Origin: an uncultured bacterium
GTDB lineage: Bacteria > Bdellovibrionota > Bacteriovoracia > Bacteriovoracales > CAZZBM01
Length of the DNA stretch: 64,000 bases
Assembly (NCBI GenBank): GCA_964652255.1
Contig: CAZZBM010000001.1
Coordinates: forward strand, 235,908-299,907
Direction of reading: 5' to 3'
A model generated the notes under the pieces. It made no database searches. It worked only from the letters and a program-made list of their open reading frames with translations, and was not told the origin of the DNA. Position 1 is the stretch's first letter. Every line of letters starts with the position of its first letter. Both the position numbers and the translations under genes were made by a program. Positions 40,120-46,956 of the stretch are shown here, piece after piece.

Positions 40120-40827
40120 ATGTTTCTATTTTTTATTCAAGCTTATACTTTTATAAGTTCAACTGAGGTACAAATTGAACCTGGATATAAGTCGAGTACT
40201 TCTTCTTGTTTTTTAAAATCCCCCACTCTCCTTCAAAAAGATCCTAGAAAGCCTTGTACTTTAGTAAAAGGGGAGCAAAAATTAATAATTCCAGCAACAG
40301 AATTTTCTTTACAACTTTTAGGTTCTCCTAGAGAAAATCCCATTAAACTTCAAAGTTCTATTGCTTTAGATAAAAATGAATTAGCTAAAAAAATCAAGGG
40401 TTGTACTATTGTGAATATAGAAAATTTATCTTCTCAAACATTTTTAATTACAGTGGCTGAATCTTGTATTTTTAAACTTGAAAGAAATTCTTTGATAGTT
40501 GAAGGGATGGTGAATCAGGAATTTATTAAAAATATCTTTATTAATAAATCTTTAGCTTCGCAACCCATAGAAGATAGTCCAAGAAGAGCTTTAGCGAGTA
40601 AAAAATCTAGTATCAAAGAATCTTTAATGGAAGAACCCTCTAGAGAGGTTACTAATCTTGAAGAGGTTAAATCTAGCACTAAGAGTCCTTCTGTTGAGCG
40701 TAAAATTAATTCTATAGATCAGCAACAACTTCCTAAAGAGGAAGAGTCTCCTTCTTTTCAGCCATGGAATGAACCTTTTGAATCAGAAAAACTCATAGAT
40801 TTCTCACAAGAAGAAAATACTTTCTAG
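40120..40827 (+). CDS. hypothetical secreted protein with low-complexity acidic/Ser-rich C-terminus
   Basis: 235 aa. Hydrophobic N-terminus, conserved-looking Cys pairs, no known motif. First gene of the TadC-like/FHA cluster. Confidence 0.5.
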   Translation: MFLFFIQAYTFISSTEVQIEPGYKSSTSSCFLKSPTLLQKDPRKPCTLVKGEQKLIIPATEFSLQLLGSPRENPIKLQSSIALDKNELAKKIKGCTIVNIENLSSQTFLITVAESCIFKLERNSLIVEGMVNQEFIKNIFINKSLASQPIEDSPRRALASKKSSIKESLMEEPSREVTNLEEVKSSTKSPSVERKINSIDQQQLPKEEESPSFQPWNEPFESEKLIDFSQEENTF

Positions 40828-40877
40828 GAAAAAAGACTCTCACTAAATATTTTTCTCTCTTTCTTTTAAAATAAGAG

Positions 40878-44015: not shown

Positions 44016-44885
44016 ATGTTAAGTTACCGAGTTTTAAAATTAAAAAACTTTGAAAAACCTCCCTTAAAAGGTGCTTATCATCGCTTAGTGTGTTTAAAAG
44101 GAGAATTTGAAGGTTCCATTCTTTATCTTATAGGGGAAAAAGTGACCCTAGGTAGAGATGTTCATCATGATATTCATGCTCAAGATCTTTATCTTTCTAA
44201 GAATCATTTAGAATTTTATCAAAAAGGCTCTAAGCTTTTTATTACAGATCTTAAAACAACCAACGGTACTTTTGTTAATAATGAAAGAATTTCTCAAAAA
44301 GAACTTCAAGAAGAAGATATTATCTCTATTGGAGGTCTTCTTTTTAAATATGAGTATGAAAAATTAAATGCATCTTCTTTAAAAATTTCTAAAAGGTTTT
44401 TATATTTAAGCCTTATTGCTCTTTTACTTCTTTATCTTCAAAAAAAACCTTCATCTTCTGCTCCTATAAAAATTTTACCTAAAGAAAATATTATTATTGA
44501 TGAGGAGCCTATAGAGAAGAAACATTTCATAGATGAAGAATTAGAAAAATTTTATAAAAGAGGATTAAGGGAATTATCTCACAAAAATTATTTAAGAGCT
44601 GAAGAAGAATTTAAACAAGCCTTAGCACTATACCCAAAAGATTCTTATGCTTCTTTTTATTTACAAAAAGCACAAGATTACTATCAAAAACACTTAGAAC
44701 ATATTCTTCTTTCTGCTGAGAGAGCCGAAGGAAAAAAACAATATAAACTTGCGCTTAATTACTATTGTTCTCTTGTACCTTCTTTAAAAAAGAAAAATAA
44801 AAAAGATCTTTTAGAAAAGATCAGTCAAAAAGTGAAAGAATTAAAAATCAATTCAAAGGATTATCATGAAGATCACTGTTTATGA
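44016..44885 (+). CDS. FHA-domain membrane protein with TPR-like C-terminus
   Basis: FHA motifs TLGRD...SKNHLEF...DLKTTNGTFVNN. One TM helix (LYLSLIALLLLYL). TPR-like NYLRAEEEFKQALALYPKDSYASFYL. Confidence 0.72.
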   Translation: MLSYRVLKLKNFEKPPLKGAYHRLVCLKGEFEGSILYLIGEKVTLGRDVHHDIHAQDLYLSKNHLEFYQKGSKLFITDLKTTNGTFVNNERISQKELQEEDIISIGGLLFKYEYEKLNASSLKISKRFLYLSLIALLLLYLQKKPSSSAPIKILPKENIIIDEEPIEKKHFIDEELEKFYKRGLRELSHKNYLRAEEEFKQALALYPKDSYASFYLQKAQDYYQKHLEHILLSAERAEGKKQYKLALNYYCSLVPSLKKKNKKDLLEKISQKVKELKINSKDYHEDHCL

Positions 44886-46956
44886 GTCAGAGGTTCTCAT
44901 TGAAGAAATTTCTTTAGACATTACTCTTTATCCAGAATCTTCTCCTTATGAATTCACTTACAAAGAAGTTCCCTATTTTAAGCTTTATTATTCTAATGAT
45001 GAAATATTTCTTCTACCTATTGTTTCTGATCTTTCTTTTAACAGAAATCTTTGTAAAGAGCAGGAAAAGATTTCAAATTATGATAAAATTTTCTATAAAA
45101 ATCTTAGTGTTCTTTTCACAGATATTAATTTTCAATTTTTCTTTGATCAAGCTAAAGAGCTTTCCCTTTTTGATTCTAGTAAAGAAGATCAAACAAAATT
45201 AATTAAAAATTACACAAATCCTTTTTTTGAAGATAAAACTCAATCAACTCTTTTACAAAAACCATCAGAAGAACAACAAAATCCAGTTCAAGAAGATAAT
45301 CCTTTTTTTTCTTTAGATAATCCCCCTACTGCTCTTCATGAAAAAAAAATCAATGAGACTTTTGAAAGTTCTTCGCAAAATGAAGAATCTTTTCAAGAAC
45401 CTCCATTAGAAAATCCTATTGAATCAAATTTTCAAGAATCTTCCTTTCAAAGTCCTCAAGACAGTTTTTTCTCCTCTGAAAGTCAAAAAACCAAGCAAGT
45501 AAGCATTAATCAAGCTAATGATGATTCCACTAGAATTGATAACTTTTTTACTCTTTTTAGATTAAAGCTTTTCGGTGAATATATTCCTTTTGATTATTAT
45601 ATTTTATCAAAAGAAGAGATTTTTATTGGTCGTGATCCTTCTTGTGAGATCAGTATTTCTGACCCAGAGATTTCTAAAAAACATGCTCGAATTATTAAAA
45701 CCTATGAAGGTTATCAGGTTGAAGATTTAAATTCCAGTAATGGAATCATTCATGAAGGACAAATTACTAATAAAGTCTTACTCTCTTCCGGAACTGAGTT
45801 TATTTTAGGGTCTACAACTTTTAAACTAGAGATCAAATCTTCTTTTGTTAAAGAAGAAGAATCTATTCTTATGCCTGTTGAGAGTGATCTCAAGGAAAAT
45901 ATTGCACCAGAAAAAACTTCAAGTAAAAAAATTCCTCCTATTCGAATTGCTCTTTTTATTTTTTTAGGAATTTTTTTAGTTCAGCTCATGAGACCTAAAA
46001 AAGAGCCAACTAAAATCGTAGAAAAAACTACAGAATCTTCTACTAAAAAGTATTCTCCTGAAGAAGAAAATTTTTTAACTTCTAATTATGAGTTAGCTAA
46101 GCATTACCTTAAAGAAGGTCTTTTAGCTGAAGCTAAAGAAAAAATTGATCTGATTAAAAATATTGATCCTCAGTATAAAAAAACACAAGTCATGGAAACA
46201 ACTCTCAATGAAAGACTTAGGAAATTGCAAGAACTAGAATTAAGAAGAAAAAAGGAGCAAGAACAGTTATTAATTAGAGAGTTAGTTTTAGAACTTAATT
46301 CAAGATTAAAAACAGCTCTTGAAAATAATGATTTAATTGCTGTAGAAATTTTAGTTCAAGAAGTACTTTCTCAAGATCCAGAAAATCTTTATGCTTTAGA
46401 AGCTAAAAGTATTTTAGCAGAAAAAAAGAGATTAGAAGAAGAAGAAAGATTACGCTTAGAAGCTCAAGAAAAACTCAAACAAGAGCTTTTAGAACTTCTT
46501 ATTCCTGCTCAACTAGCTTTAGCTAGAGGCGATTATTATTTTGCTGTTAATTCTCTTAATGAAACTCTAGAAAAAACCATTGTCATTAATGAAGTTTATG
46601 AACAAGCAACTTCTCTTTTAAAAGAAGCCAGTACTCGACTTGAAGAAGCCAAGGGACCCTTATTAGAAGAAGCAAGAATAGCTTTACAAGAAAAGAGCTT
46701 TAAGGAAGCTTATTCTCTTTATGAGAAAGTTCTTAAGCTAGATCCAGCTCTGGTAGAGGCTTTAGTAGCCTTAGATCAAATTAAAAGTTTTTTAGAAGAA
46801 CAAAACAGAAAGTTTTTTCAAGAAGGGGTCTTTTTAGAATCCTATGGTTATCTTACAGAGAGTAAAGAGAGTTTTAAGCAGGTTTTAGACTCCAGCCCAA
46901 ACTCCTCTCCTTATTCTCAAAAAGCTAATGTAAGATTAAGTTATTACCTTGATTAA
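44866..46956 (+). CDS. FHA-domain membrane protein with low-complexity linker and long coiled-coil/TPR C-terminus
   Basis: 696 aa. Central FHA (FIGRDPSCEISI...SKKHARI...EDLNSSNGIIHEG). TM helix IRIALFIFLGIFLVQL. The periplasmic helical region has TPR-like units. Confidence 0.72.
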   Translation: MKITVYESEVLIEEISLDITLYPESSPYEFTYKEVPYFKLYYSNDEIFLLPIVSDLSFNRNLCKEQEKISNYDKIFYKNLSVLFTDINFQFFFDQAKELSLFDSSKEDQTKLIKNYTNPFFEDKTQSTLLQKPSEEQQNPVQEDNPFFSLDNPPTALHEKKINETFESSSQNEESFQEPPLENPIESNFQESSFQSPQDSFFSSESQKTKQVSINQANDDSTRIDNFFTLFRLKLFGEYIPFDYYILSKEEIFIGRDPSCEISISDPEISKKHARIIKTYEGYQVEDLNSSNGIIHEGQITNKVLLSSGTEFILGSTTFKLEIKSSFVKEEESILMPVESDLKENIAPEKTSSKKIPPIRIALFIFLGIFLVQLMRPKKEPTKIVEKTTESSTKKYSPEEENFLTSNYELAKHYLKEGLLAEAKEKIDLIKNIDPQYKKTQVMETTLNERLRKLQELELRRKKEQEQLLIRELVLELNSRLKTALENNDLIAVEILVQEVLSQDPENLYALEAKSILAEKKRLEEEERLRLEAQEKLKQELLELLIPAQLALARGDYYFAVNSLNETLEKTIVINEVYEQATSLLKEASTRLEEAKGPLLEEARIALQEKSFKEAYSLYEKVLKLDPALVEALVALDQIKSFLEEQNRKFFQEGVFLESYGYLTESKESFKQVLDSSPNSSPYSQKANVRLSYYLD

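Follow-up and report, generated by a model that had tools for sequence, protein, structure and literature searches.

Why does a TadC-like platform protein lie beside three membrane-anchored FHA proteins, apart from every other gene of a Tad pilus machine? This question is raised by a gene cluster at positions 40120 to 46956 of a 64,000-nucleotide stretch of DNA (here, the window) from an uncultured bacterium of the Bdellovibrionota (GTDB lineage Bacteriovoracia, Bacteriovoracales, CAZZBM01; GenBank assembly GCA_964652255.1, contig CAZZBM010000001.1). The window corresponds to C1:235908-299907, where C1 and C2 denote contigs of the same assembly. Our analysis identifies the cluster as the tadC module of a Tad/Kil-type (type IVc) pilus machine whose genes are split between loci, and a phosphothreonine-dependent regulatory or scaffold layer on that machine is likely. 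It is a further member of a poorly understood module that has been partly studied in Bdellovibrio, not a new system.

An initial annotation, made from the DNA letters, had described six co-directional genes on the plus strand between 40120 and 46956, and the list of open reading frames (ORFs) confirms them. In window coordinates, the cluster and its downstream flank contain the following features.

40120-40827, plus strand: gene 1 (235 aa), a lineage-specific ORF outside the conserved module
40878-42158, plus strand: TadC (CpaH/KilH-type) inner-membrane platform subunit (426 aa; Pfam T2SSF, 57.5 bits)
40878-41273, plus strand: N-terminal extension of TadC (about residues 1 to 132), a small all-beta domain with four conserved Cys residues
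42155-42499, plus strand: DUF192 (COG1430) protein (114 aa; Pfam, NCBIfam PRK03760, profile match to 3M7A/3PJY)
42487-43971, plus strand: FHA1 (494 aa; Pfam FHA, 60.7 bits; PAS, weak)
44016-44885, plus strand: FHA2 (289 aa; Pfam FHA, 61.8 bits; TPR, weak)
44866-46956, plus strand: FHA3 (696 aa; Pfam FHA, 50.5 bits; TPR_2, 25.4 bits)
46957-47572, no strand: spacer of 616 bp, the position of a PP2C-type gene in most relatives
47573-48220, plus strand: stand-alone response regulator (REC; 215 aa; Pfam Response_reg, 54.2 bits)

Between 40878 and 46956, tadC and the DUF192 gene overlap by 4 nt (ATGA), the DUF192 and FHA1 genes by 13 nt, and the FHA2 and FHA3 genes by 20 nt; FHA1 and FHA2 are separated by 44 nt. 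Scans for sigma-70 promoters and terminators from 39000 to 48400 gave the same counts as shuffled controls, and a sigma-28-like pattern had no match anywhere in the window. Any statement on a transcription unit is limited to the overlapping frames.

TadC and the rest of the Tad machine

The 426-aa TadC matches T2SSF (PF00482) once, at residues 291 to 415 (57.5 bits against a cut-off of 25.2), so that its first description as a single-T2SSF protein with an extra N-terminal region stands, the domain lying in the C-terminal third. With one T2SSF domain and three hydrophobic helices, the protein is of the TadB/TadC type, unlike the two-domain PilC of the same genome, and it is 40 to 60% identical to JGI entries named “tight adherence protein C.” In the AlphaFold2 (AF2) model (pLDDT, 80.6), an N-terminal beta-domain is followed by a transmembrane (TM) helix, cytoplasmic helices, and the T2SSF domain. 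Foldseek matches its C-terminal part to the cytoplasmic domains of EpsF, OutF, and PilC (target TM-scores, 0.72 to 0.82).

The assembly is small (937 kb, or 0.94 Mb), an estimated 96% complete, and about 28% G+C according to the window profile. Within the genome collection, its family has no other member, and the 30 other genomes of the order measure 2.3 to 4.2 Mb; the frames of the module are intact although this genome is 2.5 to 4.5 times smaller than those of its order relatives. It contains four T2SSF domains, namely two in PilC (beside PilB, on C2), one in TadB, and one in the window TadC. TadB (292 aa; C1:527951-528829; 69 bits) is the product of the only other single-domain T2SSF gene. 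It belongs to a main tad locus at C1:522.0-528.8 kb, which lies on the same contig as the window tadC, about 246 kb away. Upstream of TadB, this locus encodes two Flp-like pilin ORFs, three TadE-like ORFs, RcpC (77 bits), a secretin (36.9 bits), and a TadZ-TadA fusion ATPase (679 aa; C1:525915-527954) that combines a CbiA (ParA/MinD-like) domain with T2SSE (195 bits) and has no FHA domain. A Pfam scan of this locus found no tadC, and no other TadC candidate exists in the genome. Since the main locus lacks tadC and the genome has only one TadB-type and one TadC-type gene, the window TadC is the missing partner, split off from the rest. The label “orphan” given to it initially does not apply.

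The same annotation placed the remaining machinery outside the window, and this is correct: the genome-wide matches to T2SSE, T2SSF, Pkinase, PP2C, and Peptidase_A24 all lie elsewhere, except for TadC itself, and the single prepilin peptidase is encoded elsewhere in the genome. The only secretin found, in the Pfam scan of the main tad locus, also lies outside the window, secretins and Flp pilins not having been searched genome-wide. A canonical tad locus directly outside the window, named initially as a finding that would speak against a separate module, does not adjoin it.

Two further genes of the Tad type or beside it were observed. Directly after tadB, a 562-aa protein with DUF6531 and RHS-repeat matches is encoded (C1:528887-530575); this protein may be a partner of the Tad machine or a toxin-like cargo carried by it. 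About 27 kb upstream of the window, C1:206905-208834 holds a second, short T2SSE-type ATPase (322 aa) and an upstream 324-aa ORF, an arrangement that recalls the duplicated rcpA-tadA “tad locus 2” of Bdellovibrio bacteriovorus. Overall, the reduced genome has retained genes for type IVa pili and the Tad machine as well as an Agl/Glt-like operon, and it encodes five FHA proteins alongside a single Hanks kinase and a single PP2C.

The N-terminal domain of the window TadC (strands between residues 30 and 124; pLDDT, 75 to 85 in the AF2 model) had no PDB match at an E value below 0.1 in Foldseek; there were weak matches to lipocalins and designed barrels, and no fold family was assigned. Its residues C11, C21, C68, and C114 are invariant or nearly so in the orthologue alignment. 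The beta-domain occurs in 33 of 74 TadC orthologues; a helical Cys-rich extension takes its place in 26, and the remaining 15 have no extension, so that the latter is a variable add-on. Because a hydrophobic signal peptide precedes the domain in relatives (32 of the 33 beta-form orthologues), the domain is presumably periplasmic. The window copy has no such peptide. Its start codon is a GTG at 40878, which lies in or beside the AAGAGG ribosome-binding site of the gene, and an in-frame stop (TAA) precedes it by two codons; the protein begins with MWFLFYLKASC, and a 60%-identical relative likewise lacks the signal peptide.

Conservation of the module across the phylum

Three homologue contexts showed the order T2SSF-DUF192-FHA-FHA-FHA, followed by a 247-aa protein and a response regulator, and related loci in public records carry the names Bacteriovoracaceae, Halobacteriovoraceae, or Bacteriovoracia. 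We then scored 80 species-level Bacteriovoracia loci from the genome collection by tblastn. Nearly every locus of sufficient length encodes, in this order, a PilZ protein, an unknown protein, GH3, TadC, DUF192, FHA1, FHA2, FHA3, the 247-aa protein, and the response regulator, and the five window proteins align full length with their orthologues in related loci. Full-length FHA1 orthologues are present in all 31 genomes of the order, and, of 151 genomes drawn from the whole phylum, at least 83 have an FHA1 match with an E value of 1e-15 or lower. For distant families, eight loci were fetched from FHA1-matching genomes, and their ORFs were scored with profiles built from the module orthologues; TadC-DUF192-FHA1-FHA2-FHA3 was found in all eight, TadC being present there in a short form of about 300 aa.

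The recurrence of this gene order in the 80 loci and in eight of eight distant families takes the arrangement far beyond chance. A lack of synteny in related genomes had been named initially as a reason to discard the cluster; it is, on the contrary, strongly syntenic across Bdellovibrionota. This is an old module, present in every lineage sampled across the phylum.

FHA proteins and the phosphothreonine pocket

Each of the three FHA proteins combines an FHA domain (Pfam, 50 to 62 bits) with one or more TM helices, in agreement with the initial annotation; hydropathy analysis gives two hydrophobic segments for FHA1 and one each for FHA2 and FHA3 (three for TadC).

In its AF2 model (pLDDT, 84.2), FHA1 consists of an FHA domain (residues 1 to 95), a helix leading into TM1, a periplasmic helix-plus-sheet domain of the PDC/Cache-like type (residues 161 to 290), TM2 continuing into a long helix, and a C-terminal PAS domain. 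The PAS-like module noticed initially is thus present, but it is the C-terminal cytoplasmic part, whereas the periplasmic part is PDC/Cache-like. The best PDB match of FHA1 in Foldseek is WalK (9a5d_A; 401 columns; E value, 1e-12). With WalK-type histidine kinases, FHA1 shares the succession of a TM helix, an extracytoplasmic PDC/PAS-like domain, a second TM helix, a signaling helix, and a cytoplasmic PAS domain; unlike them, it has no HAMP, DHp, or catalytic domain, and the N-terminal FHA domain is the sole candidate output. By these models, FHA1 is probably a kinase-less transmembrane sensor of the WalK-like type.

FHA2, position-equivalent to Bd0473, has a cytoplasmic FHA domain, one TM helix (residues 128 to 142), and a periplasmic TPR-like helical domain. 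FHA3 starts with a degenerate FHA-like region and continues with a low-complexity linker, an FHA domain (residues 245 to 322), a TM helix (residues 361 to 375), and a periplasmic TPR/coiled-coil part of about 320 aa. Its orthologues have two FHA domains, an architecture like that described for Bd0474. A word-based homologue search with FHA3 returned proteins of the Bacteriovoracia type only, without any named entry from Bdellovibrio or Myxococcus, and does not bear on Kil orthology.

Pocket residues were scored by alignment with 57 to 69 orthologues. FHA2 and the second FHA domain of FHA3 have the full canonical set (Gly-Arg, Ser-x-x-His, and Asn-Gly), conserved at 90 to 100%. In the window copy of FHA1, residue 27 is Ser (G-S) instead of the phosphothreonine-binding Arg (G-R) that 90% or more of the orthologues keep, and the GR motif is gone from the window FHA3 in the first of its FHA domains. 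These motif changes recur in the two closest relatives, which also have a short TadC N-terminus and a short response regulator; all of these are thus features of the reduced lineage and not sequencing errors.

The genome encodes one Hanks-type kinase (C2:133527-134960) and one PP2C (C1:96585-97298), so that the candidates for the writer and the eraser of phosphothreonine are unambiguous. Relatives have one to four Hanks kinases, including a conserved one of about 680 aa, and the kinase of the window genome is this conserved kinase of the order. FHA proteins number five genome-wide, comprising the three of the cluster, one beside the kinase, and an FHA-GGDEF protein (C1:106257-107147) resembling the predation cyclase DgcB of B. 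bacteriovorus, whose FHA structures are among the Foldseek matches. The FHA protein beside the kinase is a 539-aa multipass protein (both genes, C2:131164-134960). In relatives, the conserved kinase gene lies 5 to 8 kb from a DgcB-like gene.

DUF192 protein and the flanks of the module

The DUF192 protein was recognized initially, and this assignment is upheld. Its Pfam score is below the cut-off (23.3 bits against 27), but NCBIfam PRK03760 backs it, and a profile of its orthologues matches structures 3M7A (E value, 3e-7) and 3PJY. The protein has no signal peptide, and a TM segment is absent in 75 of 76 orthologues. Its gene comes right after tadC in nearly all related loci, and the ATGA overlap of the two frames suggests translational coupling. 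We found no function for DUF192 in the literature, and the PDB has two structural-genomics entries only. The cytoplasmic DUF192 protein is probably a small accessory factor associated with TadC.

Gene 1 was included in the cluster at first and described as secreted. It has no Pfam or NCBIfam match and no homologue in the 80 related loci, and its comparison with the protein at the same position in the closest relative is not significant (E value, 0.24); it therefore stands outside the conserved module. No strong hydrophobic segment was found in it, and the secreted label is not confirmed. Among 1.8 billion representative proteins, gene 1 has one match, a 2903-aa type IX secretion system (T9SS) repeat protein (30 to 35 bits per repeat). 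Residues 93 to 148 weakly resemble a unit that occurs about 22 times in that protein, which carries a T9SS CHU_C sorting domain. We rejected this match as a basis for an assignment, as the E value of 1e-37 sums 22 weak repeat matches and overstates the similarity. On present sequence data, gene 1 is best described as a lineage-specific orphan.

The sixth gene of the module in relatives encodes a protein of about 246 to 247 aa with a weak but consistent PP2C/SpoIIE score in Pfam. A profile of 43 orthologues matches PP2C structures in the PDB over the full length, the best being PppA (6jkv; 2e-15), followed by the tPphA type (1e-14), Stp1, and PstP, and the invariant residues lie in DGxGG, DG, and DN contexts. 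By these profile matches, the operon-closing gene encodes a real PP2C phosphatase that looks catalytically intact, which supports phospho-signaling. It is frequent but not universal, with copies in 58 Bacteriovoracia loci and six of the eight distant families. In the window, neither tblastn nor an unfiltered six-frame profile search detected a PP2C remnant in the 616-bp spacer. The nearest relative (50 to 60% identity; from an activated-sludge metagenome) similarly has FHA3 followed by a short response regulator and no PP2C gene. One further family (f6; loci L112 and L113) has no PP2C gene after FHA3, and locus L112 has an extra FHA2-like paralogue; the gene was thus lost there independently of the loss in the window lineage. 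The spacer itself holds small minus-strand ORFs, e.g., 47072-47308 (78 aa), which has a hydrophobic N-terminus.

The response-regulator gene occupies the same position in related loci and is a conserved downstream neighbor. The window protein has 215 aa against 300 to 535 aa in its orthologues, and its N- and C-terminal segments align with the longer ones.

A gliding operon of the Agl/Glt-like type occupies positions 18912 to 28815 of the window on the minus strand, with TolQ/TolR-type motor genes and genes for large TPR proteins. It includes a 644-aa bitopic protein with a Pro/Lys-rich linker, and no FHA domain is encoded in the operon. We considered the 973-aa and 644-aa proteins of this operon as partners of the FHA proteins; this was rejected, as there is neither an FHA match nor linkage in relatives, and the idea was kept as a rival of low probability.

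Comparison with published systems

The closest published counterpart is the operon Bd0470-Bd0475 of B. bacteriovorus. There, a “tadC locus” of its own encodes TadC next to FHA, TPR, and PAS proteins, TadZ and TadA are fused, and PilD is shared; tadC, like other core tad genes, could not be deleted, TadC-mCherry colocalizes with the secretin at the invasive pole, and a link between Tad and the neighboring signaling proteins was named as future work (bioRxiv 10.64898/2026.07.08.737194). In transposon sequencing (Tn-seq), the Bd0470 (TadC) mutant fails to attach to prey, while the Bd0474 mutant attaches and shows no prey killing or rounding (PMC6561027). A 2025 study treated Bd0470-Bd0475 as one operon, detected an interaction of Bd0474 with Bd0075 in a two-hybrid assay, and predicted a Bd0473-Bd0475 contact (PMC12034629). 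The initial statement that no characterized system has this gene set is therefore outdated, given Tn-seq phenotypes, a two-hybrid partner, and TadC localization (PMC6561027, PMC12034629, and bioRxiv 10.64898/2026.07.08.737194).

The window cluster resembles Bd0470-Bd0475 in gene order: a separate tadC comes first, and genes for a small protein, FHA proteins, and, in the full module, one more small protein follow. FHA3 orthologues and Bd0474 are also built alike, with a pair of FHA domains, a TM helix, and a TPR part in the periplasm. In both organisms, the other Tad genes lie elsewhere, TadZ and TadA are fused, and no dedicated prepilin peptidase accompanies the tad genes. The window differs in lacking the last gene of the module (the Bd0475 position, PP2C-like in Bacteriovoracia), in the lost Arg of FHA1 and the degenerate first FHA domain of FHA3, in its 0.94-Mb genome, and in the extra N-terminal beta-domain, without a signal peptide, of its TadC. 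This comparison with strain HD100 is one of published domain descriptions and operon order, not of aligned sequences.

The initial annotation proposed a Kil/Tad-related accessory module as one hypothesis, and the evidence supports it, the T2SSF protein being the TadC subunit of a Tad machine encoded at separate loci. Published tables pair KilH (MXAN_4650) of Myxococcus xanthus with Bd0470 as reciprocal best hits and list the FHA genes MXAN_4648 and MXAN_4649 beside KilH (PMC8460266, supplements), and the Kil/Tad trees from TadB, TadC, ATPase, and CpaB are congruent (PMC8460266). Like the machine described here, Kil is divided between loci, has a TadC-type gene beside FHA and FHA-plus-TPR genes, and serves predation. 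However, kilG (tadB) and kilH (tadC) are adjacent in M. xanthus, and no DUF192 protein is listed in the kil clusters. The ATPase KilF carries an FHA domain (PMC8460266), whereas the TadZ-TadA fusion of the window genome is not among its five FHA matches. Kil assembles at sites of prey contact, whereas the Bdellovibrio machine is placed at the pole beforehand. A 2025 review regarded the FHA proteins of kil clusters as promising and untested.

Canonical Tad/Flp systems (Aggregatibacter tad and Caulobacter cpa) share with the window genome Flp-like pilins, TadE-like proteins, RcpC/CpaB, a secretin, an ATPase, TadB, and TadC; in them, however, tadB and tadC are adjacent, FHA and DUF192 genes are absent, and TadZ and TadA are separate proteins. 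A functional analogy is offered by the H1 type VI secretion system (H1-T6SS) of Pseudomonas aeruginosa (PpkA, PppA, and Fha1), an envelope nanomachine with a phosphothreonine-reading FHA protein that is reset by a PP2C. The T6SS PppA is also the best PDB match of the operon-phosphatase profile of the relatives. The window cluster differs in having no kinase nearby, three membrane-anchored FHA proteins, and a Tad pilus machine, so that the likeness is one of function and not of membership. A T6SS-type locus has kinase, PP2C, and FHA genes together; here, the kinase gene is on C2 and the PP2C gene is at C1:96585-97298.

How the module may work

In the mechanism that we consider likely, TadC would pair with TadB to form the inner-membrane platform, on which the products of the genes co-transcribed with tadC would form a regulatory or scaffold layer. 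FHA1 would act as a two-pass membrane sensor, with its periplasmic PDC/Cache-like domain and cytoplasmic PAS domain as input and its FHA domain as output, and FHA2 and FHA3 would be single-pass readers whose periplasmic TPR domains could contact envelope partners. The sole Hanks-type Ser/Thr kinase probably phosphorylates threonines on platform-associated proteins. By reading phosphothreonine, the FHA domains would assemble the Tad machine or switch it from attachment to invasion and killing, and a PP2C, operon-encoded in most relatives and encoded elsewhere in the window genome, would reset the circuit. We infer phosphorylation-dependent gating from the canonical pocket residues of FHA2 and FHA3, the operon PP2C of relatives, the single kinase and PP2C of the genome, and the WalK-like FHA1, which together favor a phosphothreonine mechanism.

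Several observations weigh against this mechanism. Phosphorylation sites, links between kinase and substrate, and contacts of the FHA proteins with TadC are not known from any organism, and the kinase gene is not linked to the cluster. Three parts have been lost in this lineage, namely the PP2C gene of the operon, the phosphothreonine-binding Arg in FHA1, and the first of the two FHA domains in FHA3, which suggests that part of the system may act without phosphothreonine; family f6 also lacks the PP2C. The window FHA domains score against the SctD-type family of Pfam (Yop-YscD_cpl) as well, and the SctD FHA domains of type III secretion systems are phospho-independent scaffolds. The window TadC lacks the signal peptide by which the Cys-bearing domain of its beta-form orthologues would presumably reach the periplasm. 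Finally, the orthology to Bd0470-Bd0475 and Kil is based on architecture, gene order, and published tables.

The main rival explanation is a structural one. The FHA proteins might form a phospho-independent ring, in the inner membrane or the cytoplasm, around TadB-TadC, comparable to SctD (YscD/PrgH), with no kinase signaling; we regard this as unlikely, but some weight must be given to it because the reduced lineage has lost phospho-related parts, including the PP2C, the FHA1 Arg, and one FHA domain, and yet kept the genes. SctD has the same arrangement of an N-terminal cytoplasmic FHA fold, one TM helix, and a periplasmic domain, all three window FHA domains exceed the Yop-YscD_cpl cut-off (50 to 56 bits), and a PP2C is dispensed with in family f6 too. 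YscD-type FHA domains, however, typically lack the canonical phosphothreonine-binding residues, every one of which is kept (at 90 to 100%) in FHA2 and the second FHA domain of FHA3. A catalytically intact-looking PP2C ends the operon in most lineages, and the periplasmic parts are TPR or PDC-like, without ring-building motifs. Although MXAN_4649, beside KilH, is annotated as PrgH-like (PMC8460266), the full-length SctD model TIGR02500 reaches only 30.3 bits against a cut-off of 86, over residues 2 to 58.

The Agl/Glt-like operon, 12 to 21 kb upstream of the cluster in the window, is the starting point of another explanation, in which the FHA proteins mainly serve Agl-Glt gliding or a cyclic di-GMP/DgcB invasion signal and are neighbors of tadC by co-expression only. 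GltJ is known for a GYF-like domain. Such a domain is also present in Bd0075, the partner of Bd0474 (PMC12034629), and the phenotype of the Bd0474 mutant is unlike that of the tadC mutant (PMC6561027). The FHA parts match NCBIfam GltG, but at 18 to 20 bits against a cut-off of 650 and over the FHA domain only; moreover, the FHA genes are never beside glt genes in the loci examined, whereas their order with tadC, in overlapping frames, is kept phylum-wide. We give this explanation very little credence. Even less probable is an autonomous trans-envelope signaling system with a repurposed platform protein, unrelated to the Tad pilus, as was proposed alternatively in the initial annotation. The separation of tadC from all other tad genes, the sensor-like FHA1, and the neighboring response regulator would fit such a system, but gene content and synteny disfavor it: the main tad locus has a TadB and no TadC, for which the genome offers no other candidate. 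In addition, the TadC of B. bacteriovorus is found with the Tad secretin and its gene could not be deleted (bioRxiv 10.64898/2026.07.08.737194), and the trees of the Kil/Tad components agree with one another (PMC8460266).

Significance for predatory Bdellovibrionota

Recent reviews and the 2026 preprint regard the FHA proteins beside tadC and kil genes as the prime, untested candidates for what triggers the Tad/Kil machines of predatory bacteria at prey contact. Our results add that FHA1 is probably a kinase-less sensor with a WalK-like input; they do not establish a new kind of system. The presence of the module in every lineage sampled and its survival under extreme genome reduction argue that it is core to the lifestyle of these bacteria. 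Because the reduced lineage has trimmed phospho-dependent parts, it also supplies natural variants for comparison. We tentatively suggest that FHA1 represents an undescribed class of sensor, with a WalK-like input and an FHA output, and that it forms, with FHA2, FHA3, and DUF192, a minimal circuit around TadC, with phosphothreonine or conformation as its gate, through which prey contact would bring about the change from Tad-mediated attachment to invasion; this is possible, though we would not call it probable. If it is true, the 0.94-Mb genome would hold the simplest natural version in which the triggering of predatory Tad/Kil machines could be solved.

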